Below, piece after piece: positions 2,141-61,818 of a stretch of 64,000 bases of DNA. The stretch is taken from NCBI GenBank assembly GCA_044868145.1, contig JBIOWE010000004.1, positions 73,395 through 137,394 of the forward strand, given 5' to 3'. Below the pieces are notes generated by a model, which did no database searches, was not told the DNA's origin, and saw nothing but the letters and a program-made list of their open reading frames with translations. Numbering within the stretch: position 1 is the first letter of the stretch; each line of letters opens with the position of its first letter. The translations under genes and the position numbers were made by a program. The stretch is from Patescibacteria group bacterium (GTDB lineage Bacteria > Patescibacteriota > Patescibacteriia > UBA10025 > JBIOWE01).

Positions 2141-3928
2141 TCAGGACTGAACGTCGCGGAGTTGCCCAAGCAATGAGTTAAGCTGCGCGCTATATTCACC
2201 TGCTCGCTGGCGATCACCGTCGTGTTCTGCGGTCCTTATCCGCTCTTGCATTTCATGCAGTTGCGCATGTATCGCGTGACGCTTGAGGTCCTTCACGCCC
2301 TCGCGAATCGTTACGCGCACCGCTTCCTCATCGAGAGGGGTAAATGATTGCTGCGCGCGAAAATACAATATGTCGGCATATTCGGCGAGCTCTTTTGCTT
2401 CTCGCCGCAATTCCTCAATAAACAATGCAAAGTCGAAATCGTGCTTTTGAGTATAGTAAAAAATCAGCTTTTTGTAAAGATCCTGCGTTTTCTCGTTCGA
2501 GATGGTGGTCGGCGAAAGTTGATCAATAATGTAGTTCAAGTGATCGGGAACTGCCAAACCGATGCCCACAAGATCTTCGGTCAATAATACGAACCGATCA
2601 TGCGGGCGTGATTGCGGTGGCGCTTCTTTTGGCGAACTCACGGTCTGAGGCTGGCGCATCTTTTTTATTTTATCCCAGAGTGCGTTTTCTTGGACGTTGA
2701 TCGTTCTCGCCAATTGCTGAACGTAATGAGATTGCTCGATTGAGTCCGCGATTTTGGCGATCAACGGCAAGAGAGATTTCGCAACCTGCTTTTTTCCGTC
2801 TACCGTTTTCGTGCTGTACTTACGCAGTGTTTTCTCAAAAAAGTACTCCATCACGGGCTTTGCTTTCTCAAGCGCATTTTTCCAGTCGTTGGGGTTTTGC
2901 CGAATGCACTCATCAGGGTCCTTGCCCGCGGGCAGATCGATCATCCGAACGTTCATCTCTTGGCTGAGTGCAACGTCGAGCCCGCGTCGGGACGCTTCTT
3001 CGCCGGCAACGTCTGTGTCGAACGCAAAGAGTATCGTATCTGTATACCGTCGCAGTAAACGTACATGGCCGGTCGTTAGCGCGGTTCCAGACGTCGACAC
3101 GACATTGGTTACGCCGGCCTGATGCGACGCGATAACATCCATATACCCCTCCACGACAACGGCGTTTTTCTGGGTACGTATTTCGTGCTTCGCCCGGTCA
3201 AGCCCAAAGACCACATCGCTTTTGTTGTAGAGAAGTGTTTGCGGCGAGTTGATATATTTTGCAACGTCCTTGCCTTCGGCAAGCGCGCGACCACCGAACC
3301 CGATTGTATTCCCGTGCACGTCCCGAATGGGGAACATAATGCGGTTGCGAAATCGATCGTAGAAACCCACGCCGCGCTCCTTTTTAATCGTTAGACCAGC
3401 GAGAAAAATGTCATTTTCTGAATACCCCTTTTTTCCCAAATGCTCGGCCAGGTTGCTCCAAGCATCAGGCGCAAAACCGAGGGAGAATAATTCTATCGTC
3501 TCGTCCGTAAGTCCCCGTCGCTTCAGGTAGGCACGGGCGTTTTGCCCAGTCGCAGTGAATAACTGGTCTCGATAAAAGGAAGCAGCGTCGCGCAGCAAAT
3601 CTTGAAGCTTCGTTTTCTGGTTCGTAAGCTCGGGATTGTAGGACCGGAGCTGTACGTTTGCTTTTTTCGCAAGCACGCGGAGCGCTTCCGGAAACTCCAT
3701 GCCTTCGATGCGCATCACAAACGTGAAAAGGTCCCCTCCTTCGCCACACCCGAAGCAGTGCCAAATCTGTCTGTCGGGCGAAACGAAAAACGACGGCGTT
3801 TTTTCCGAATGGAACGGACAAATGGCACGGAAACTTGTGCCAGCCCTCTTGAGCTGAATATATTCCTGGATAACGTCGACGATATTAAGTTTCGTCTTGA
3901 TTTCGTCAACTGGAGAGCCGAGTGACAT
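2141..3928 (-). CDS. dnaG: DNA primase DnaG
   Basis: N-terminal CHC2 zinc finger (CPFHSEKTPSF...HCFGCGEGGD), then TOPRIM-type motifs. Length is 595 aa. Confidence 0.9.
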   Translation of the reverse strand: MSLGSPVDEIKTKLNIVDVIQEYIQLKRAGTSFRAICPFHSEKTPSFFVSPDRQIWHCFGCGEGGDLFTFVMRIEGMEFPEALRVLAKKANVQLRSYNPELTNQKTKLQDLLRDAASFYRDQLFTATGQNARAYLKRRGLTDETIELFSLGFAPDAWSNLAEHLGKKGYSENDIFLAGLTIKKERGVGFYDRFRNRIMFPIRDVHGNTIGFGGRALAEGKDVAKYINSPQTLLYNKSDVVFGLDRAKHEIRTQKNAVVVEGYMDVIASHQAGVTNVVSTSGTALTTGHVRLLRRYTDTILFAFDTDVAGEEASRRGLDVALSQEMNVRMIDLPAGKDPDECIRQNPNDWKNALEKAKPVMEYFFEKTLRKYSTKTVDGKKQVAKSLLPLIAKIADSIEQSHYVQQLARTINVQENALWDKIKKMRQPQTVSSPKEAPPQSRPHDRFVLLTEDLVGIGLAVPDHLNYIIDQLSPTTISNEKTQDLYKKLIFYYTQKHDFDFALFIEELRREAKELAEYADILYFRAQQSFTPLDEEAVRVTIREGVKDLKRHAIHAQLHEMQERIRTAEHDGDRQRAGEYSAQLNSLLGQLRDVQS

Positions 3929-4038
3929 AATGAAAAATGAAAAATAAAAAATAAAATATCAAAATGACAGTGTAAAATGTAAAAATTTTTGATCTTTTAT
4001 TTGTCATTTTAATCTTTGATGTTTGATTTTTGAATTTT

Positions 4039-5082
4039 CTAGCGTTGGAAAACGGCAAAGTACACTTCGAAAAAAAGAAGTGTGAACCATCCGAGCATGA
4101 GCACGAACCACAATATAATCTGGATGCGTTCGGCACGCGTTTCTGCGGTAACGCTAAAATTCTCGGCTGTGGTCGTGTAGATGTCTTCGAGGCTGTCGAG
4201 CTTTTCACGAATACTTTGTGTCCAATTTTCGAGATGGAACTTCTTTCCGATCAACTCATACAGTTTTGCGGCGTACCAATCGCCAATGAGCTTAATGTTT
4301 CGCTCAACGTCTTCAAAGTCAATAATGGATTGGAGACGCAGCGCCATAAGTTCACGCATGGTCGCGCGAATTTCGTTCGTCTTCACCTTCGGCTTTGTAC
4401 TGACCAATTTATGCGTACGGATCAATCGTTGGTCGAGTTGCCAATCAAGGCTGCGTAACCGCAACAAGTGAGCGTTCGCCACCTGTAAAAGGTCTACCCC
4501 GTCGTCCCACTTGCCTTCGGGATCAAACAGAAACGCACCGTCCCAATCGACGATAATCAAATCGTCCTGCGCGTACTGAATGCGCGAGGCCAAAGTATTC
4601 TCCACCTCGTTCTTGTCGAGCGCAATTGGTTCGCTCTTTAAAAGGGACGCCATCGCGTTCTTGTAACCAAAGAATTGCTCCGGACTTCCAGCGTACCCCG
4701 ATACGCAAAACAAGGTATATTCTTCCACGAATCGCTTATCAACCTGTTGTTTATCCAAAATTTTATAGCCGACTTCAATGAGATCGTCTTTTAGCTGGAT
4801 ATTATCTATGGAAAAAATGTCCTGTACCTGCGCGATTACCTCAACGACAATAGTGTCCGGCATATACGCTTTCACGTTGATCCGAACCGAGAGCTGACCG
4901 ACCTTCTGCGTTTGCTCCTTGAGAACCTTTCGCGGAGGGAGCGTTTCAGTATACGAAGGTGAGCTACGAACATGCTTCACTTCTTCTGCCCCGCGCTTCG
5001 GCACAGCAGATTTGCTCTGAGCAACAACAAAGGCGATGATCTGACCTGGGATTTTTTTTGTTTGAGTGTTATTCATAGTCAT
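4039..5082 (-). CDS. Hypothetical protein with a C-terminal transmembrane helix; possibly DUF155/RMD1-like (uncertain)
   Basis: 347-aa ORF. Its hydrophobic C terminus is ILWFVLMLGWFTLLFF. The start codon lies 1 nt from the 15-nt tRNA-Ser 3' end repeat. No confident homology recognised. Confidence 0.4.
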   Translation of the reverse strand: MTMNNTQTKKIPGQIIAFVVAQSKSAVPKRGAEEVKHVRSSPSYTETLPPRKVLKEQTQKVGQLSVRINVKAYMPDTIVVEVIAQVQDIFSIDNIQLKDDLIEVGYKILDKQQVDKRFVEEYTLFCVSGYAGSPEQFFGYKNAMASLLKSEPIALDKNEVENTLASRIQYAQDDLIIVDWDGAFLFDPEGKWDDGVDLLQVANAHLLRLRSLDWQLDQRLIRTHKLVSTKPKVKTNEIRATMRELMALRLQSIIDFEDVERNIKLIGDWYAAKLYELIGKKFHLENWTQSIREKLDSLEDIYTTTAENFSVTAETRAERIQIILWFVLMLGWFTLLFFEVYFAVFQR

Positions 5083-5098: not shown

Positions 5099-5235
5099 TC
5101 CCGCCACGAGGGCGGGATTTCGGTCGCCTAATGGCGACCTCAAGATTCTTCACTTTTTAAGAATTCGGAGAGGGTGGGATTTTCCGCCAAAGGCGGATCC
5201 GCCGTAGGCGGAGAACCCTGTCCTTAACCTGGAAT

Positions 5236-5322
5236 CGGAGGCGAGAGGATTCGAACCTCTGATACCCTTGCAGGCATACGTCCTTTCCAGGGACGCCCAT
5301 TCAACCGCTCTGGCACGCCTCC
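5236..5322 (-). tRNA. tRNA-Ser (anticodon GGA), long variable arm
   Basis: Acceptor GGAGGCG/CGCCUCC. Anticodon stem CGUCC/GGACG with loop CUGGAAA. Long variable arm. T arm AGAGG-UUCGAAU-CCUCU. Discriminator G. Confidence 0.8.
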
Positions 5323-5923: not shown

Positions 5924-8302
5924 CTACCTTCGTTCGGCGCTTTTTATCGCCAGCGTTGTCTTGATAACCGTGTCCGGGTTGAGTGAAATGGAATCAATGC
6001 GTTCGCGCGCCAGGAATTGGGCAAATTCCGGAAAGTCGGATGGCGCTTGGCCGCAAATACCGATCTTGATTTTGTTTTTGCGGGCGGCGCGTATAACGTC
6101 GCGGATCAGCGTTTTGACGGCAGCGTTCCTTTCATTATAAATGTGGCTGACCAGTTCCGAATCGCGATCAACGCCCAAGGTAAGCTGCGTTAGGTCATTC
6201 GAGCCAATGGAAAACCCATCGAAAATTTTGGCAAATTCATCCGCAAGAATCACGTTGGAAGGAATCTCGACCATAACGTAGACGTCCAGTCCATTCTTGC
6301 CTTGCACAAGCCCGTATTTTTTCATTGTCGCGATCACTTTCTTGCCTTCTTCAACGGTTCGGCAAAAAGGCACCATCACTTTAACGTTTGTCAGCCCAAT
6401 TTCGTTGCGTACTTTTTCAAGCGCTTTGCATTCAAGCGCGAACGCTGGCTCGTATTCTTTACTATAATAGCGGGACGCGCCGCGCCAACCAATCATCGGG
6501 TTGTCCTCGACGGGCTCAAACTGTTTCCCGCCGATCAGGTTCGCGTATTCGTTCGTTTTGAAGTCTGATAGACGCACAATAACGTCGTTCGGGTAGAACG
6601 CTGCGCCGATTGTTGCGACTCCGGCCGCAAGTTGGTCCACAAAAAATTGCGTTTTGTTCGCGTATCCCTTTGTCAGCAGATCGATTTGCCGTTTAGCGTG
6701 TTGGTCCTTCAGGCGCCTGTACTGCAATAACGCTTTTGGATGTATTTTGATGTATGAAGCAATAATAAATTCCTCACGCGCTAGCCCAACCCCGTCATTC
6801 GGAATAAAGGAAAGTTGAAACGCGAGCTCCGGATTCCCAACATTCATCATAATCTTCGTGCGTGGTCGTTTCATTCCTTTCAAATTAGTGCGTTGCACGC
6901 GGAACGGCAACAAACCTTTATAGACGATCCCTTGTTCACCCTCGGCGCAGGAAACGGTTATCGGTTGCCCGTTTTTGATTTTCCTCGTGCCCGTCCCAGT
7001 ACCCACTATGCACGGTATACCAAGCTCTCGGGAAATGATGGCCGCGTGGCACGTCCGGCCGCCGCGGTCGGTGATAATGGCGGACGCAATTTTCATAATC
7101 GGCTCCCAGTCCGGATCCGTCATGTCCGTCACGAGCACCTCGCCCTTCTTAAACGTACCGATCTCTTTTGGACTCAGGATAATGTGCGCTTTGCCCGCCC
7201 CGATCTTCGAGCCAACAGATGCGCCAGTGATCACAACGGCACCACGATGGCCTAACACATATTCTTCGTAGACGCTCATGTCGCGGCCGGACTGTACGGT
7301 TTCCGGTCGCGCTTGGATTAGATACAACTTGCCATCACGCCCGTCTTTCGCCCACTCCATATCCATGGGCTTACCATAATGTTCTTCAATGGTCACGGCA
7401 TGTCGTGCGAGCTCTAGTACTTCAGCATCAGACACGGAAAAACGTTTGCGGTCTTTGTCGGTGACGGGTACGACTCTTGTAGGCTTTGGCCCGGTCGCAT
7501 AAATCATTTTTACGCGCTTCTCCCCGAGCTTCCGCGAGAGAATCGCAGAATATCCTTTTTTCAGTGTTGGCTTAAACACATAGAACTCATCTGGAGTCAC
7601 TGCGCCCTGCACGATCGTTTCGCCCAAACCCCAGGAAGCGTTAATAACCACTGAGTTGCGAAAGCCGCTTTCCGTGTCTATGGAAAACATTACACCCGAC
7701 GTGGCGAGGTCGGAACGGATCATTTTTTGCACACCGATCGAAAGCGCTATTTTGAAATGGTCGAACTTTTTATCGTGCCGGTATGAAATTGCACGATTCG
7801 TAAACAACGAAGCAAAACATTTTTTGCACGCCTCAATGAGCGCTTGTTCCCCGCGGATGTTTAAATATGTTTCCTGCTGTCCGGCAAACGACGCATCCGG
7901 TAAGTCCTCCGCCGTGGCGGAAGATCGGACAGCCACGTCAGTATTCGCTCCGTACTCGCGGCAAAGCGTACGATACGCTTTCGCGATCGTCTCCTCCAAC
8001 TCTTTCGGCAAGGGCTTACTTAATATAAGACTGCGCACGCGGCTGCCGCGGCTGAACAAATCGCGGATATTCTGGGTATTTAGACCCTGCAAAATTCTTT
8101 TTATTTCTTTCTTTAATTGCTGTTTTTCGAGGTAAAAACGATACGCGCTTGCGGTCACGGCGAACCCGTCAGGGACGCGAACGCCTTTCCCGGTCAGCAT
8201 ACGGTACATTTCTCCGAGCGACGCGTTCTTGCCTCCGACAAGCGGTACGTCTCGCACGCCAATCTCACGAAACCACAAAATGAATTTACTCGATCTTGCC
8301 AT
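5924..8302 (-). CDS. ppsA: Phosphoenolpyruvate synthase (pyruvate, water dikinase)
   Basis: 792 aa. N-terminal ATP-grasp PEP-utilising enzyme motifs (GGKNASLGEM), a central phosphohistidine domain (GGRTCHAAIISRELGIP) and a C-terminal PEP-binding TIM barrel. Confidence 0.85.
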   Translation of the reverse strand: MARSSKFILWFREIGVRDVPLVGGKNASLGEMYRMLTGKGVRVPDGFAVTASAYRFYLEKQQLKKEIKRILQGLNTQNIRDLFSRGSRVRSLILSKPLPKELEETIAKAYRTLCREYGANTDVAVRSSATAEDLPDASFAGQQETYLNIRGEQALIEACKKCFASLFTNRAISYRHDKKFDHFKIALSIGVQKMIRSDLATSGVMFSIDTESGFRNSVVINASWGLGETIVQGAVTPDEFYVFKPTLKKGYSAILSRKLGEKRVKMIYATGPKPTRVVPVTDKDRKRFSVSDAEVLELARHAVTIEEHYGKPMDMEWAKDGRDGKLYLIQARPETVQSGRDMSVYEEYVLGHRGAVVITGASVGSKIGAGKAHIILSPKEIGTFKKGEVLVTDMTDPDWEPIMKIASAIITDRGGRTCHAAIISRELGIPCIVGTGTGTRKIKNGQPITVSCAEGEQGIVYKGLLPFRVQRTNLKGMKRPRTKIMMNVGNPELAFQLSFIPNDGVGLAREEFIIASYIKIHPKALLQYRRLKDQHAKRQIDLLTKGYANKTQFFVDQLAAGVATIGAAFYPNDVIVRLSDFKTNEYANLIGGKQFEPVEDNPMIGWRGASRYYSKEYEPAFALECKALEKVRNEIGLTNVKVMVPFCRTVEEGKKVIATMKKYGLVQGKNGLDVYVMVEIPSNVILADEFAKIFDGFSIGSNDLTQLTLGVDRDSELVSHIYNERNAAVKTLIRDVIRAARKNKIKIGICGQAPSDFPEFAQFLARERIDSISLNPDTVIKTTLAIKSAERR

Positions 8303-32669: not shown

Positions 32670-33500
32670 CTATTTTTGCCGCTTAGACAACCGCCATGTA
32701 TTCCAAAGGAGCATCGCCACGGTCATCGGGCCCACGCCGCCGGGTACGGGCGTTACATATCCCGCTTTGCTCTTGACGGATGCAAGGTCAACGTCACCAA
32801 ACAGGCGCTTGCCTCGCTTCGTGAAACCAACGTCAACGAGTATTGCTCCGCGTTTGATCATTGACCCTTTAATAGCATGCGGCTTCCCCATAGCGGATAC
32901 AATAAGATGAGCTTGTCGCGTCGCTTTTTGATAGCCGCCATCGCGCGCAATGGCAAACGATACCTTCCATCCTTTGCGGTTCAGCAATGCGGCAAGCGGT
33001 TCAGCAAACAACCTACTGTTTGCCAAGACAACGGCGCGTTTTCCTTTGGGGGAAACACCCGACTCGCCGATAAGTCGCAGTATGCCGAGAAAGACACCGG
33101 GAATTATTGACGGCTTTCCCGCCAATAGACGTTGCATATTCACGGGATGAAAGCCATCAACGTCTTTTCTCGGGTCAATCATGGACACGATATGGTCCGC
33201 ATTCAAGTGCTTTGGTAGCGGCAATTGTACCAAAACGCCATGGATGTGTGGATTTTGATTCAATCGGCTAATAATCAAGCGAATCCGGGATTCGGTGGTG
33301 ATTTCTGGCAAAACGTATTTTTGAAAAAGTATCCCAACGTCTTTGGCACCTTGTTCCTTCAGACGAACGTACGTATGCGATGCGGGGTTGTTGCCAATCA
33401 GAAGAATGGCCAGGCCTGGTTTTCGCCTTTGACCGCTATTTTTTGCTTTCAGTTGCTTGCGAATCTGTTGACTCAATACTGTACCATTGAGGAGTTTCAT
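32670..33500 (-). CDS. folD: Bifunctional methylenetetrahydrofolate dehydrogenase / methenyl-THF cyclohydrolase
   Basis: 276 aa. NADP-binding GRS..VG motifs and the FolD family pattern PGLAILLIGNNPAS. Confidence 0.9.
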   Translation of the reverse strand: MKLLNGTVLSQQIRKQLKAKNSGQRRKPGLAILLIGNNPASHTYVRLKEQGAKDVGILFQKYVLPEITTESRIRLIISRLNQNPHIHGVLVQLPLPKHLNADHIVSMIDPRKDVDGFHPVNMQRLLAGKPSIIPGVFLGILRLIGESGVSPKGKRAVVLANSRLFAEPLAALLNRKGWKVSFAIARDGGYQKATRQAHLIVSAMGKPHAIKGSMIKRGAILVDVGFTKRGKRLFGDVDLASVKSKAGYVTPVPGGVGPMTVAMLLWNTWRLSKRQK

Positions 33501-58712: not shown

Positions 58713-59294
58713 TTATGTACGCCCAAGAAATTTAAGCGCTTCTTTCACTTTTTTGCTGACATCAGAGATATCGTCGGGAATTGCGTGCAGAGCTTTTTGC
58801 GCCTCCACTTTTGTATACCCAAGTCGAAGAAGCGCGTCAAGCGCTTTCTGGTCGATCGTTCGCTCTTTCGTAAATACTGCACCACCCTTTTTCGATACGA
58901 CTAATTTATCCTTCAGCTCCACAATAATACGCTCCGCAGTTTTCATACCAATCCCCGGCGCTTTCGTCAGATAGACAGCATCTTCCCGACTAATCGCCTG
59001 TTGCACGTTCTCTAGTGAACCTATGGAAAGCACGGCCATGGCCACGCGCGGGCCAACGTCGGATACTGTTAATAAAAGCTCGAACAAATCAAGCTCTTCA
59101 CGACTTGGCATGCCATACAACTCCATCTTGCCTTCGGGTGTATACAGATACGTATAGAGCGTCAGCTCTTTGCCCACAATTATACTCTCGAGCACCTTTG
59201 CGGGCACAAACACTTTATAGCCAACGCCTTGCACATTGAGCACAGCGTACTTCTCGGCTTTGGATTGAACTGTACCACTCAGGGAAGCAATCAT
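58713..59294 (-). CDS. ruvA: Holliday junction branch-migration protein RuvA
   Basis: Start placed at MIASLSGTV. OB domain, two helix-hairpin-helix motifs (GIGMKTAERI) and a C-terminal domain III. Confidence 0.85.
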   Translation of the reverse strand: MIASLSGTVQSKAEKYAVLNVQGVGYKVFVPAKVLESIIVGKELTLYTYLYTPEGKMELYGMPSREELDLFELLLTVSDVGPRVAMAVLSIGSLENVQQAISREDAVYLTKAPGIGMKTAERIIVELKDKLVVSKKGGAVFTKERTIDQKALDALLRLGYTKVEAQKALHAIPDDISDVSKKVKEALKFLGRT

Positions 59295-59427
59295 ATGGCT
59301 ATTATACCAGAGAATCAAAGAGGGTGTATGGAGATGCTGAAACGAGTTCAGCATGACTGAAAAAAACCTTACCGATAGTCACCCTGAACTTGTTTCAGGG
59401 TCTCCATGGAACCGCTTGCCCCATTGC

Positions 59428-59540
59428 TGTCATTTCGAGGACGCTGAACTTGTCGAAGCGGACGAGAAATCTCCTGGCCAAAGCCTCTTGGCTTGGAGAT
59501 TTCTCACCCCCTCGGATGCACTCTGGGGTTCGAAATGACA
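59428..59540. other. 113-nt nested inverted-repeat element: outer 11-bp stem, inner 11-bp stem, apical 5-bp hairpin
   Basis: Outer pair tgtcatttcga (59428..59438) with tcgaaatgaca (59530..59540). Inner pair gagaaatctcc (59464..59474) with ggagatttctc (59495..59505). Apical gccaa/ttggc. Confidence 0.5.
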
Positions 59541-59637
59541 ACTGTGGGGCAGGCGCCGTGACCTCCCCTTCGGACGAGTTTTTTATTAGACAAGGATAAT
59601 TAAAAGTGATACTTTTAAGTCACAAAAGGAGGAAAAA

Positions 59638-59784
59638 TTGAATCAGATCATTCATGGTTTTGAAGAAGCTTTGAAAGACTTTGTGGGCGCTTTTACCCCA
59701 CTCACGATTGCCAGCACCTTGATCCTTGCCCTTGCATTTACTTTTATCATATGGATTCTCGTCAAGAAAGGGATCATAAAATAA
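59638..59784 (+). CDS. Unannotated small membrane protein (48 aa, TTG start)
   Basis: Ribosome-binding site AAAGGAGG 5 nt before the TTG. A single hydrophobic helix LTIASTLILALAFTFIIWILV. Followed directly by a terminator. Flanked by 24-nt direct repeats. Confidence 0.35.
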   Translation: MNQIIHGFEEALKDFVGAFTPLTIASTLILALAFTFIIWILVKKGIIK

Positions 59785-59808
59785 AACTCGTCTTCGGACG
59801 AGTTTTTT
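59784..59808 (+). terminator. Rho-independent terminator: stem actcgtc/gacgagt, loop ttcg, then T6
   Basis: Perfect 7-bp stem followed by TTTTTT, only 12 nt before the uvrB ATG. Confidence 0.65.
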
Positions 59809-59820
59809 GTTAGACTACAA

Positions 59821-61818
59821 ATGCTTATGGAACGATTCAAGTTGGTTTCAAAATTCAAACCGAAGGGCGACCAACCTGATGCCATCAAAAAACTCGTCGC
59901 CGGATTGAAGAAGGGCTATCGTGATCAAACGTTGCTCGGTGTCACCGGCTCGGGCAAGACGTTCACTATGGCCAACGTTATCGCCCAAGTCCAACGACCG
60001 ACGTTGGTGATTTCCCATAACAAAACGCTGGCAGCGCAACTGGCCAGCGAGTTTCAGGATTTTTTCCCGAGCAACGCGGTCAACTATTTCGTGTCGTACT
60101 ACGATTACTACCAGCCCGAGGCGTACGTTCCACGCACGGATACATACATAGAAAAAGAAACGGATATTAACGAGGAAATTGACCGCCTACGCCATGCTTC
60201 GACGCAGGCGCTACTCTCGCGTCGCGACACGCTCATTGTCGCGTCCGTTTCGTGCATTTATGGTTTGGGTTCGCCGGACGAATATAAAAAGGTGTCCATG
60301 AAGCTCACCACAAGACAAAGGATCACGCGCGAGGTGTTTCTCAAAAAACTCGTGGACATGCAATACAAACGTAATCAGTTTGACTTGTGGCGCGGCAGTT
60401 TCCGCGTTGTCGGCGAAGTAATCGAAGTGTTTCCGGCGTTCTCGGAAAATAATATCTATCGATTTCAGTTTGACGGCGATACGATTGAAAAAATCTCAGA
60501 AGTGGATTCGCTCACCGGCAAAGTTATCAATAATCTGACAACGGTTGACGTATACCCAGCAACACACTACATCGCCGAGCCATCGGACTTGGATGCGATT
60601 CTCGAGCAAATCCGCGCGGATTTGAAAGAGCGCGTAGCATTGTTCGAAAAGCAAGGTAAACCCTTAGAAGCGGAGCGAATCAAACAACGCACGAACTTTG
60701 ACCTTGAAATGATCAAAGAAACCGGTTATTGCAGCGGCATTGAAAACTATTCACGCTATTTCGATGGCCGGCAGCCGGGAACACCGCCGTACACGCTCAT
60801 GGACTTCTTTCCAAAAGATTACCTCTTGATTATTGATGAGTCGCACATGACGCTGCCGCAAATAAAAGGAATGTACCAGGGCGATCGATCAAGAAAAACC
60901 ACGCTCGTGGATTACGGATTTCGCCTGCCTGCCGCGCTTGATAATCGCCCGTTGAAATTCGAAGAGTTTGAACAGCGCGTGCGGCAAGTCGTGTACGCGT
61001 CAGCCACGCCGGACGAAGTTGAACGATACAAATCACAGCAAATCGTCGAGCAGCTCATTCGGCCGACCGGACTCTTGGACCCGACCATTGAAATAAAACT
61101 AACCAAGAATCAAATTGATGATTTGATTGGCGAAGTCCAGAAACGCATCAAGAAAAAACAGCGCGTGCTCGTGACCACGCTCACGAAGCGGATGGCCGAG
61201 GATTTATCCGACTACTTGGGCGACCTCGGGATTAAAGTGCACTATTTGCATTCCGAGCAGGACACGTTTGAACGGTTGGAAATCCTGCGTGACCTACGCA
61301 TGGGCGTGTTCGACGTCGTCGTAGGCATTAACCTGTTACGTGAGGGGCTCGACTTACCCGAAGTGTCACTTATTGCCATCTTAGATGCCGACAAGGAAGG
61401 CTACTTACGCTCAGAGACGGCGCTCATCCAAACCATGGGCCGAGCCGCGCGGCATCTCGACGGCCATATTATCATGTACGCGGACAGGGTCACCGGCTCA
61501 ATGCGCCGCGCCATCAATGAAACAAATCGGCGGCGAAAAACCCAGGAGCGCTACAATCAGGAGCACAACATTACACCGAAATCCATCGTGAAACAAATCA
61601 AGGAAAGCAGGCTCTCTGGCGCAAAAATAAAAGAGGAAAAGCCCGCGCAGCTTTCGTTGAAAGATATTCCGAAAGAAGAAGTGCCGCACGTACTCGAGGA
61701 CCTTGAAAACCAAATGGATCTCGCGGCTAAAAACCTTGAGTTTGAGCGCGCGGCTGAACTGAGAGACCAGGTTGCATCGCTGAAAGGCCTAACGATAAAA
61801 AAGAGACGGGGTGGTTAA
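59821..61818 (+). CDS. uvrB: Excinuclease ABC subunit B UvrB
   Basis: Walker [11 protein letters not shown], helicase motifs and the beta-hairpin region, plus the C-terminal UvrC-interaction domain [12 protein letters not shown]. Confidence 0.95.

Follow-up and report, generated by a model that had tools for sequence, protein, structure and literature searches.

The 64,000-nucleotide window analysed here (the whole stretch of contig JBIOWE010000004.1 from a Patescibacteria group bacterium) contains the divergently transcribed genes ruvA, on the − strand, and uvrB, on the + strand (start at 59821 or 59827). The most likely start of ruvA is at 59294 (MIASLSG...), giving a protein of 193 amino acids as in its relatives. 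The spacer between the two genes, ∼530 nt in length (59295–59826), holds a palindromic element of 113 nt at positions 59428–59540. The original prediction suggested that this element could be a structured small RNA, something akin to a miniature inverted-repeat transposable element (MITE), or a paired operator for a dimeric regulator. The data set out below make it probable, in our judgement with good confidence, that the element is instead a dimer of repetitive extragenic palindromic (REP)-type units of the superfamily tagged by CGTC or TGTC, that it forms a four-unit cluster together with a second dimer, and that neither ruvA nor uvrB is under its control.

The symmetry of the element can be read directly from the sequence, and its stems, apical pair and loops are, base for base, those first described. 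A perfect outer stem of 11 bp is formed by TGTCATTTCGA (59428–59438) and TCGAAATGACA (59530–59540), and an equally perfect inner stem of 11 bp by GAGAAATCTCC (59464–59474) and GGAGATTTCTC (59495–59505). At the apex, GCCAA (59477–59481) faces TTGGC (59488–59492), and the internal loops comprise 25 nt (59439–59463) and 24 nt (59506–59529). Folding of the 113 nt as RNA gave −55.7 kcal/mol for the + strand and −51.2 kcal/mol for the − strand (z = −7.0 and −6.1), with none of 200 shuffled sequences folding as well. As single-stranded DNA (ssDNA), the values were −30.2 and −29.2 kcal/mol (z = −6.6 and −5.9). The inverted repeat also extends outward, with 26-nt arms (59413–59438 and 59530–59555) that are 85% complementary. 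A similar long hairpin, spanning 76 nt (59330–59405), was revealed by folding just upstream.

Since the outer and inner arms covary (see below), the repeat unit is half of the element: a tagged hairpin, 5′-(T/C)GTCA-N4...N4′-TCTCC-3′. The general form of the unit is 5′-(C/T)GTCA-[8-bp stem]-[loop]-[stem′]-TC(T/C)C-3′. Four units, u1 to u4, are found in the spacer, and each was identified by pattern and by a covariance model, R1, which was built from 75 units, all of them from other organisms. From 5′ to 3′ along the window, the features of the cluster are:

59330–59358, − strand: unit u1, AGTC-ATGCTGAA-CTCGT-TTCAGCAT-CTCC, a canonical 8-bp stem with a 5-nt loop (pattern; R1 E = 8e-8, 38.7 bits)
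59377–59405, + strand: unit u2, AGTC-ACCCTGAA-CTTGT-TTCAGGGT-CTCC (pattern; R1 E = 1e-7, 38.5 bits; folds)
59413–59427: left arm, CGCTTGCCCCATTGC, of an outer inverted repeat that is not of the family and encloses the u3/u4 dimer; partner at 59541–59555 (inverted-repeat search; fold)
59428–59474, + strand: unit u3, tag TGTC, stem ATTTCGAG/CGAGAAAT with tandem G·A, 23-nt loop, tail CTCC (pattern; R1 E = 7e-4, 23.9 bits)
59475–59494, no strand: spacer of the u3/u4 dimer, 20 nt, with complementary ends GGCCAA/TTGGCT (sequence; folds)
59495–59540, − strand: unit u4, tag TGTC, ATTTC-GA-ACCCC...GGGGT-GA-GAAAT, tail CTCC (pattern; R1 E = 8e-5, 27.5 bits; ssDNA fold)
59541–59555: right arm, ACTGTGGGGCAGGCG, of the outer inverted repeat (inverted-repeat search; fold)

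The upstream hairpin consists of u1 and u2, which form a dimer with the tags inside (TT type), 22 nt upstream of the u3/u4 dimer. The u1 stem ATGCTGAA/TTCAGCAT is perfect and its ssDNA hairpin has a predicted energy of −6.7 kcal/mol (z = −4.4); in u2, ACCCTGAA has a C–G at the second pair. The 113-nt element itself is made of u3, its left half, and u4, its right half, which is inverted relative to u3 so that the GTC tags point outward (HH type). In both units the stem reads ATTTC-GA...GA-GAAAT around an enlarged, internally paired loop, with 5–6 Watson–Crick pairs plus the tandem G·A (ATTTCGAG/CGAGAAAT in u3 and ATTTCGAA/TGAGAAAT in u4). The 23-nt loop of u3 holds a CGCT/AGCG mini-stem of its own, and that of u4 is 21 nt long. 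The two ‘internal loops’ of the palindrome are thus each unit's own enlarged loop, and its ‘apical hairpin’ is the spacer of the dimer. The nested symmetry is real, although it does not reflect any special design: it is perfect because both partners have the same stem subtype and lie in inverted orientation. The string CTGAACTTGT occurs both in u2 and in the loop of u3, and the units are therefore interrelated.

Matches to GTCA-N4...N4′-TCTC number four in the window, all within 59330–59540, where 0.54 would be expected by chance. With E values between 8e-8 and 7e-4, u1, u2, u4 and u3 were the only matches of R1 below E = 1 in the same 64 kb. A search for further copies, as originally proposed, thus finds only these four clustered units within the window and, as shown next, abundant copies in other genomes.

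We scanned a genome collection with a pattern in which only the outer arms were specified (GTCATTTCGA, 75–105 free positions, TCGAAATGAC). At least 120 genome loci matched. Among the matches listed are Bacteroidota, Chloroflexota, Planctomycetota, Clostridia, Acidobacteriota, Binatota, Proteobacteria and others, with taxa such as Flavobacterium, Pedobacter, Mucilaginibacter, Anaerolineales, Binataceae and Spirochaetes. The inner arms GAGAAATC/GATTTCTC, which the pattern did not request, were nevertheless present in 101 of the 125 listed matches. When viral contigs were scanned with the outer-arm cores ATTCC and ATTGC, 15 loci and at least 120 loci were obtained, respectively, and the inner arms were seen to change in step with the outer ones: ATTCC is accompanied by GGAAT (GAGGAATC/GATTCCTC) and ATTGC by GCAAT (AAGCAATC/GATTGCTT). 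Short linkers between the arms are mutually complementary (e.g. CGAAG/CTTCG, GGAAC/GTTCC and CTGAAAG/CTTTCAG), and long linkers carry small hairpins of their own.

The simple unit was then sought in metagenomes as GTCA-NN-CTGAAC-NN-GTTTCAG-NN-TCTCC, leaving six positions free, which gave at least 120 loci. The free NN/NN stem positions were complementary in 115 of the 125 matches listed, the pair types being TG/CA (46), TC/GA (27), TT/AA (22) and CC/GG (20). Stem covariation in the matches of these scans is strong. The pair counts of the R1 alignment come from a set that was pre-selected for pairing and carry less weight than this unbiased test. Immediately 5′ of GTC, the same 125 matches have T in 69 cases, C in 50 and A in 5. 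Partner orientation among the listed single-unit matches was HH in 19 cases and TT in 6. The invariant columns of the 75-unit R1 alignment are G2, T3, C4, A5, G10, T25 and C26. Searching the literature for the literal box sequences returned only chance matches to primers.

A frequent loop among the collected units is G-C-G-N-A-G-C (GCGAAGC, GCGTAGC, GCGCAGC or GCGGAGC) flanked by GA...GA, as at loci L014, L018, L045, L051 and L123. The sequence d(GCGNAGC) forms an unusually stable DNA mini-hairpin, which would fit a function at the ssDNA level. At another locus, L361, two units of the CTGAA type (936–1009 and 6395–6468) share a loop insertion of ∼48 nt (CGTCACCCTGAACTTGTTT[ATTCGCTTATTG...]CAGGGTCTCT); loops can therefore host extra DNA that is copied along with the unit.

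Repeats of this kind have already been described in many bacteria. Di Nocera, De Gregorio and Rocco (2013, BMC Genomics 14:522, PMC3733652) divided REPs into two superfamilies, with the tags GTAG and CGTC. The CGTC tag is often TGTC or CCTC. It is followed by a stem of 8–9 bp with A–T pairs at the first and second positions, a loop of 4–5 nt (families with other loop lengths are noted) and a short tail. Most of these REPs form HH dimers, that is, with the tags outside, and the dimer spacers are 20–100 bp long, sometimes with complementary ends. They lie mainly between convergent or co-directional genes, have no associated transposase and include dRS3 of Neisseria and RPE-4 and RPE-6 of Rickettsia (PMC3733652). 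The superfamily also includes Wolbachia repeats.

The window units resemble the CGTC REPs in several respects. An unpaired (C/T)GTC tag lies at one end, as TGTC in u3 and u4; an 8-bp stem beginning with A–T is perfect in u1 but has a C–G second pair in u2 and tandem G·A in u3 and u4; u1 and u2 have a 5-nt loop; and the tail is short and C-rich. The u3/u4 pair is an HH dimer whose 20-nt spacer has complementary ends, and units of the family are mostly intergenic, gene-downstream and not linked to a transposase. The resemblance is not complete: the window tails read CTCC(A) rather than CCA, and Patescibacteria are outside the five phyla listed in 2013 (PMC3733652).

A second comparison is with the nuclease target described by Chenal et al. 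(2025, Nat Commun 16:2388, PMC11893778), who extended dRS3 to the 28-nt Neisseria Transformation Sequence, NTS (CGTCATTCCCGCGMAVGCGGGAATCYRG). NTS-like Ssn-related motifs (SRM) flank genes for single-domain GIY-YIG proteins of ∼94 amino acids, Ssn (CDD cd10448). SsnA binds the hairpin only as ssDNA and cuts a few nucleotides upstream of it; it does not act on RNA, on double-stranded DNA (dsDNA) or on the complementary strand. Cleavage depends on the three bases that precede the palindrome, and binding on the C that follows it, whilst the loop can be replaced or extended (PMC11893778). The invariant columns G2, T3, C4, A5, T25 and C26 of our alignment coincide with these cleavage and binding positions. 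All four window units have the head HGTCWY and the tail RNCYNB, with a C right after the palindrome; like NTS and SRM, they belong to a type of 28–50-nt hairpin that is oriented by this 5′ head.

Units of these types are also found elsewhere on either side of small single-domain GIY-YIG genes, in an NTS-ssn-NTS arrangement. The loci from the DNA scans contained ∼11 GIY-YIG open reading frames (ORFs), with stop-to-stop spans of ∼50–160 amino acids and ∼86–106 amino acids for the full-length genes. PF01541 was confirmed for the four that were scanned. Most of these ORFs lie within 0–65 nt of units of the same class, often on both sides. A small GIY-YIG protein from Patescibacteria is encoded by an ORF of 86 amino acids at L301 (13824–14081). 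The loci with units and GIY-YIG genes are, with the unit type where one was assigned:

L068: T-type
L247: G-type
L312, L330 and L361: CTGAA-type
L020, L353 and L375

At L068, an uncultured Bacteroidetes contig, T-type units at 1794–2404 bracket a GIY-YIG gene of 106 amino acids (1849–2172). The same contig carries an array at 3661–4078, with a period of 86 nt, whose units switch between two loop types that lie on opposite strands.

Several observations weigh against placing the window cluster in this family. The full SRM string, HGTCWYN(0-2)YYVSBRHN(0-5)WNVSBRGN(0-2)RNCYNB, matched none of the four window units and only one of 130 collected units. It misses the window units because their stem bodies differ (ATTTCGAG, ATGCTGAA and ACCCTGAA, as opposed to the GC-rich ATTCCCGC of NTS); the string is a search aid rather than a definition, hand-made from 29 genomes (PMC11893778). 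Neither a regular expression nor a hidden Markov model found a GIY-YIG gene in the window. The GIY-YIG proteins that neighbour units elsewhere are only distantly similar to the UPF0213 structures 1YWL and 1ZG2, and no NCBIfam model was found for them. In u1 and u2 the tag is AGTC, not CGTC or TGTC, with GTC kept. The loops of u3 and u4 are structured and 23 and 21 nt long rather than 4–5 nt, their stems contain tandem G·A mismatches, and by nearest-neighbour parameters each of these units alone is a weak ssDNA hairpin (−3.8 and −5.7 kcal/mol, z not significant). The position of the cluster, between divergent genes, is the rarest context in the family. Finally, four units at one spot, seen in a 64-kb window, do not demonstrate a repeat-rich genome.

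That context was examined using the T-type dimers of other genomes. Of 125 listed copies, 105 do not overlap a long ORF (≥100 amino acids), so most appear to be intergenic. Among 74 classifiable cases, 32 lie between convergent genes, 38 between tandem genes and 4 between divergent ones, in line with the published distribution of REPs; the flanking ORFs are a median of 70 nt away. In viral contigs the neighbours are phage structural genes. Di Nocera et al. remarked on REPs inside uvrA and uvrB (PMC3733652), and we considered a link to repair genes on this ground; we rejected it, as 2.8 Mb of unit-bearing loci contain one uvrB and one ruvA near units, which is about the genomic background. The repair-gene setting of the window cluster is therefore a coincidence.

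The same figures bear on the proposal of a paired operator, through which a dimeric or tetrameric regulator such as LexA would control ruvA and uvrB. The position between two repair genes, and a short core (ATTTC/GAAAT) that recurs four times as inverted pairs, would suit an operator. The same boxes, however, turn up hundreds of times in unrelated phyla, for the most part on the downstream side of genes; divergent promoter regions account for only the 4 of 74 noted above, and repair genes are not enriched. Copies differ in the distance between the boxes (5–45 nt), which is incompatible with a rigid dsDNA operator, and relatives with the same gene pair do not have the element in their ruvA–uvrB spacers. 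None of the known LexA boxes (CTGT-N8-ACAG, GAAC-N4-GTTC and GTTC-N7-GTTC) is present in the element. We regard an operator, LexA-like or otherwise, as very unlikely.

The closest UvrB relatives are from Patescibacteria (Parcubacteria/Kerfeldbacteria-like) and share at most 74% identity. Gene order is kept in these relatives (NTP_transferase-FemAB-ruvA-[variable insert]-uvrB), but the inserts differ, comprising 2.8 kb of small ORFs, a 532-residue protein, two small ORFs, or a cupin gene. R1 found no units in the ruvA–uvrB spacers of the syntenic relatives, and blastn of the window spacer against the syntenic loci returned only terminator-like sequence. Since the relatives' spacers carry different inserts and nothing similar to the element, the spacer is a variable spot and the element is lineage-specific; conservation in relatives, which had been suggested as a check, is absent at this site.

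Another explanation is that the spacer is transcribed into a structured small RNA or a cis-acting RNA, which would work through a fold with a three- or four-way junction. Both strands are predicted to fold very stably, a terminator-like site with a T-run follows on the + strand (59563–59591), and REPs that lie downstream of genes are believed to work as RNA hairpins (PMC3733652). Against this, the stability is equal on both strands, as expected of a DNA palindrome, and the site is not kept in syntenic relatives. There is no + strand gene upstream to supply a transcript, and the predicted ruvA promoter lies between the cluster and ruvA. Rfam gave no match on the element at the gathering score or at E ≤ 10, and across 38 loci with family members it gave none on the members, but only tRNAs and one adjacent Flavo-1. 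What is conserved is sequence, the GTC tag and the C after the stem, in agreement with the contacts of an ssDNA nuclease, and the characterised Ssn does not bind RNA (PMC11893778). We consider an RNA function for the element quite unlikely.

The adjacent Flavo-1 RNA (Rfam RF01705, 80 bits) is in Flavobacterium hydrocarbonoxydans (L017, 2010–2107 and 2142–2219), where a T-type HH dimer lies 35 nt from it, so that two different repeat or RNA families occupy one intergenic region.

We consider it quite unlikely that the cluster is a classical REPIN, i.e. a doublet of GTAG REPs served by a REP-associated tyrosine transposase (RAYT, an IS200-like Y1 transposase), or a DDE-derived MITE with TG...CA ends. 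The doublet-hairpin architecture is as described for REPINs (PMC3116915 and PMC3337134), and the element ends in TGTCA...TGACA. REPINs and bacterial interspersed mosaic elements (BIMEs) with RAYT (TnpA-REP) share further traits with the window cluster: short palindromic units, inverted doublets that fold into long hairpins, intergenic clusters and action at the ssDNA level. They differ in their GTAG tag, where the window has (C/T)GTC or, in u1 and u2, AGTC; in their enzyme, an HUH Y1 transposase rather than a GIY-YIG protein; and in their sequences, which are usually species-specific, unlike the window-type heads and tails that are common across phyla. Di Nocera et al. found no transposase accompanying CGTC REPs (PMC3733652). 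Our neighbourhood analysis of the family loci found the small GIY-YIG gene as a recurrent neighbour and no recurrent transposase-like one, and no wider search of this genome for RAYT was made. No target-site duplication was seen, the flanking T/A being part of the tag. Of the three options in the original prediction, the MITE-like one came closest, in that the element is a dimer of a dispersed repeat unit of REP type.

A fortuitous palindrome or plain bidirectional intrinsic terminator is hardly credible: the 64 kb contain a single cluster and it lies near terminator-like sequences, but no shuffled sequence folds as well, no T-run directly follows the hairpin, and R1, a model made from foreign sequences, matches all four units with E values down to 8e-8. 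Largely on the basis of the sequence itself, we also rejected 6S-like RNA (central bubble), SRP (signal recognition particle) RNA, a hammerhead-type ribozyme (CGAAA/GUC), an integron attC site, a retron msr/msd and a MITE with IS21/Tn7-like TGT...ACA ends, whose defining motifs or neighbouring genes are absent.

We therefore return to the REP-type cluster. By analogy with other organisms, where this has been shown, its units would fold as hairpins in ssDNA. Small single-domain GIY-YIG nucleases (Ssn) would bind these hairpins in a manner that requires the C just after the palindrome, and would cut a few nucleotides 5′ of the GTC tag, with no action on dsDNA or RNA. The units behave as non-autonomous repeats, which build up between genes and chiefly on their downstream side. 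For the window cluster the likeliest reading is an insertion peculiar to its lineage, passively tolerated and perhaps made into a hairpin that was already there; it would have arrived by whatever process copies such units. We infer that it does not regulate ruvA or uvrB and that the stem classes in the window may be Ssn targets.

Insertion into hairpins would fit the flanks of the dimers. A complementary run of at least 8 nt is present in the flanks of 8.9% of 313 dimers and in 1.7% of controls, an excess that is partly due to neighbouring units. The u3/u4 dimer, with its 15-nt outer arms, is one case of such an enclosing hairpin. In the related Parcubacteria genome GW2011_GWA2_48_9 (L381, 5915–6065), the two arms of the uvrB terminator (AAAAAGCGCCC ... 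GGGGGCGCTTTTT) enclose an HH dimer that looks like an insertion into the terminator loop.

For the window itself the outcome is mainly negative, as the ruvA–uvrB palindrome is neither a repair-gene regulator nor a novel RNA. The element is an ordinary selfish-type repeat; what is new is the host, in Patescibacteria, and the variant stems and loops, the kind of repeat being already known. It should be annotated as a REP/NTS-type repeat cluster, and ORFs called across it (e.g. 59395–59541, − strand) are spurious and best disregarded. In wider terms, hairpin units that share the NTS head and tail but differ in their stems are present in Patescibacteria and in many other phyla, and the published SRM pattern fails to find them. 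The stem classes that escape the string match genomes of ∼10 phyla or major lineages among the matches listed, as well as viral contigs and metagenomes. Tentatively, the classes ATTTCGAG (tandem G·A, GNA-type mini-loops) and CTGAA-CTTGT-TTCAG might be true Ssn targets within a broader system, a possibility that we consider less likely than not. If so, the Ssn–hairpin system would be much broader than reported and would reach the ultra-small Patescibacteria, and dimer partners and nuclease specificity would co-evolve in discrete stem classes. The excess of dimers inside unrelated hairpins and terminators would then point to insertion into exposed ssDNA hairpin loops, a first clue to the mechanism by which the units are copied. 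Knowledge of the units that the SRM pattern misses is of use in cataloguing Ssn nuclease/target pairs as ssDNA tools and in the study of repeat spread.

The spacer is not wholly non-coding, contrary to the original prediction of a non-coding stretch of ∼500 bp. An ORF of 48 codons on the + strand (59638–59784) has a TTG start 7 nt past a strong ribosome-binding site, AAGGAGG. Its product would have one hydrophobic helix, LTIASTLILALAFTFIIWILV, and shows no similarity to the small ORFs upstream of uvrB in relatives (L001, 5870–5986 and 5456–5734). The ORF is bracketed by a 29-nt direct repeat, 90% identical (59563–59591 and 59787–59815). In the second copy, ACTCGTC-TTCG-GACGAGT and the T-run after it make up a perfect terminator hairpin, whereas the first has a decayed 5′ arm. 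These bracketing repeats suggest that the 224-bp segment with the small ORF may have arisen by duplication or insertion.

On the − strand an extended −10-like sequence, TGGTATAAT (59309–59301), ends 7 nt before the ruvA ATG (59294) and is likely to be the ruvA promoter. Being predicted to lie between the cluster and the gene, it implies that the cluster is probably not part of the ruvA mRNA. Its position would also suggest a leaderless or nearly leaderless ruvA mRNA, and the tail of u1 adjoins the spot where a −35 box of ruvA would be.

Other repeats were seen in the window. At 32982–33002, 21 nt on the reverse strand match the left outer arm (59409–59429) at 95%, with E = 0.002 in a small search; the match is inside an apparent coding sequence and is probably due to chance. 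An AT-rich palindrome at 3932–4039 has 59-nt arms that are 75% complementary, with GAAAAAT/ATTTTTC-like repeats, and a GC-rich overlapping palindrome, GGATTTTCCGCCAAAGGCGGATCCGCCGTAGGCGGAGAACCC, occurs at 5177–5218, just upstream of a tRNA-Ser gene (5236–5322).

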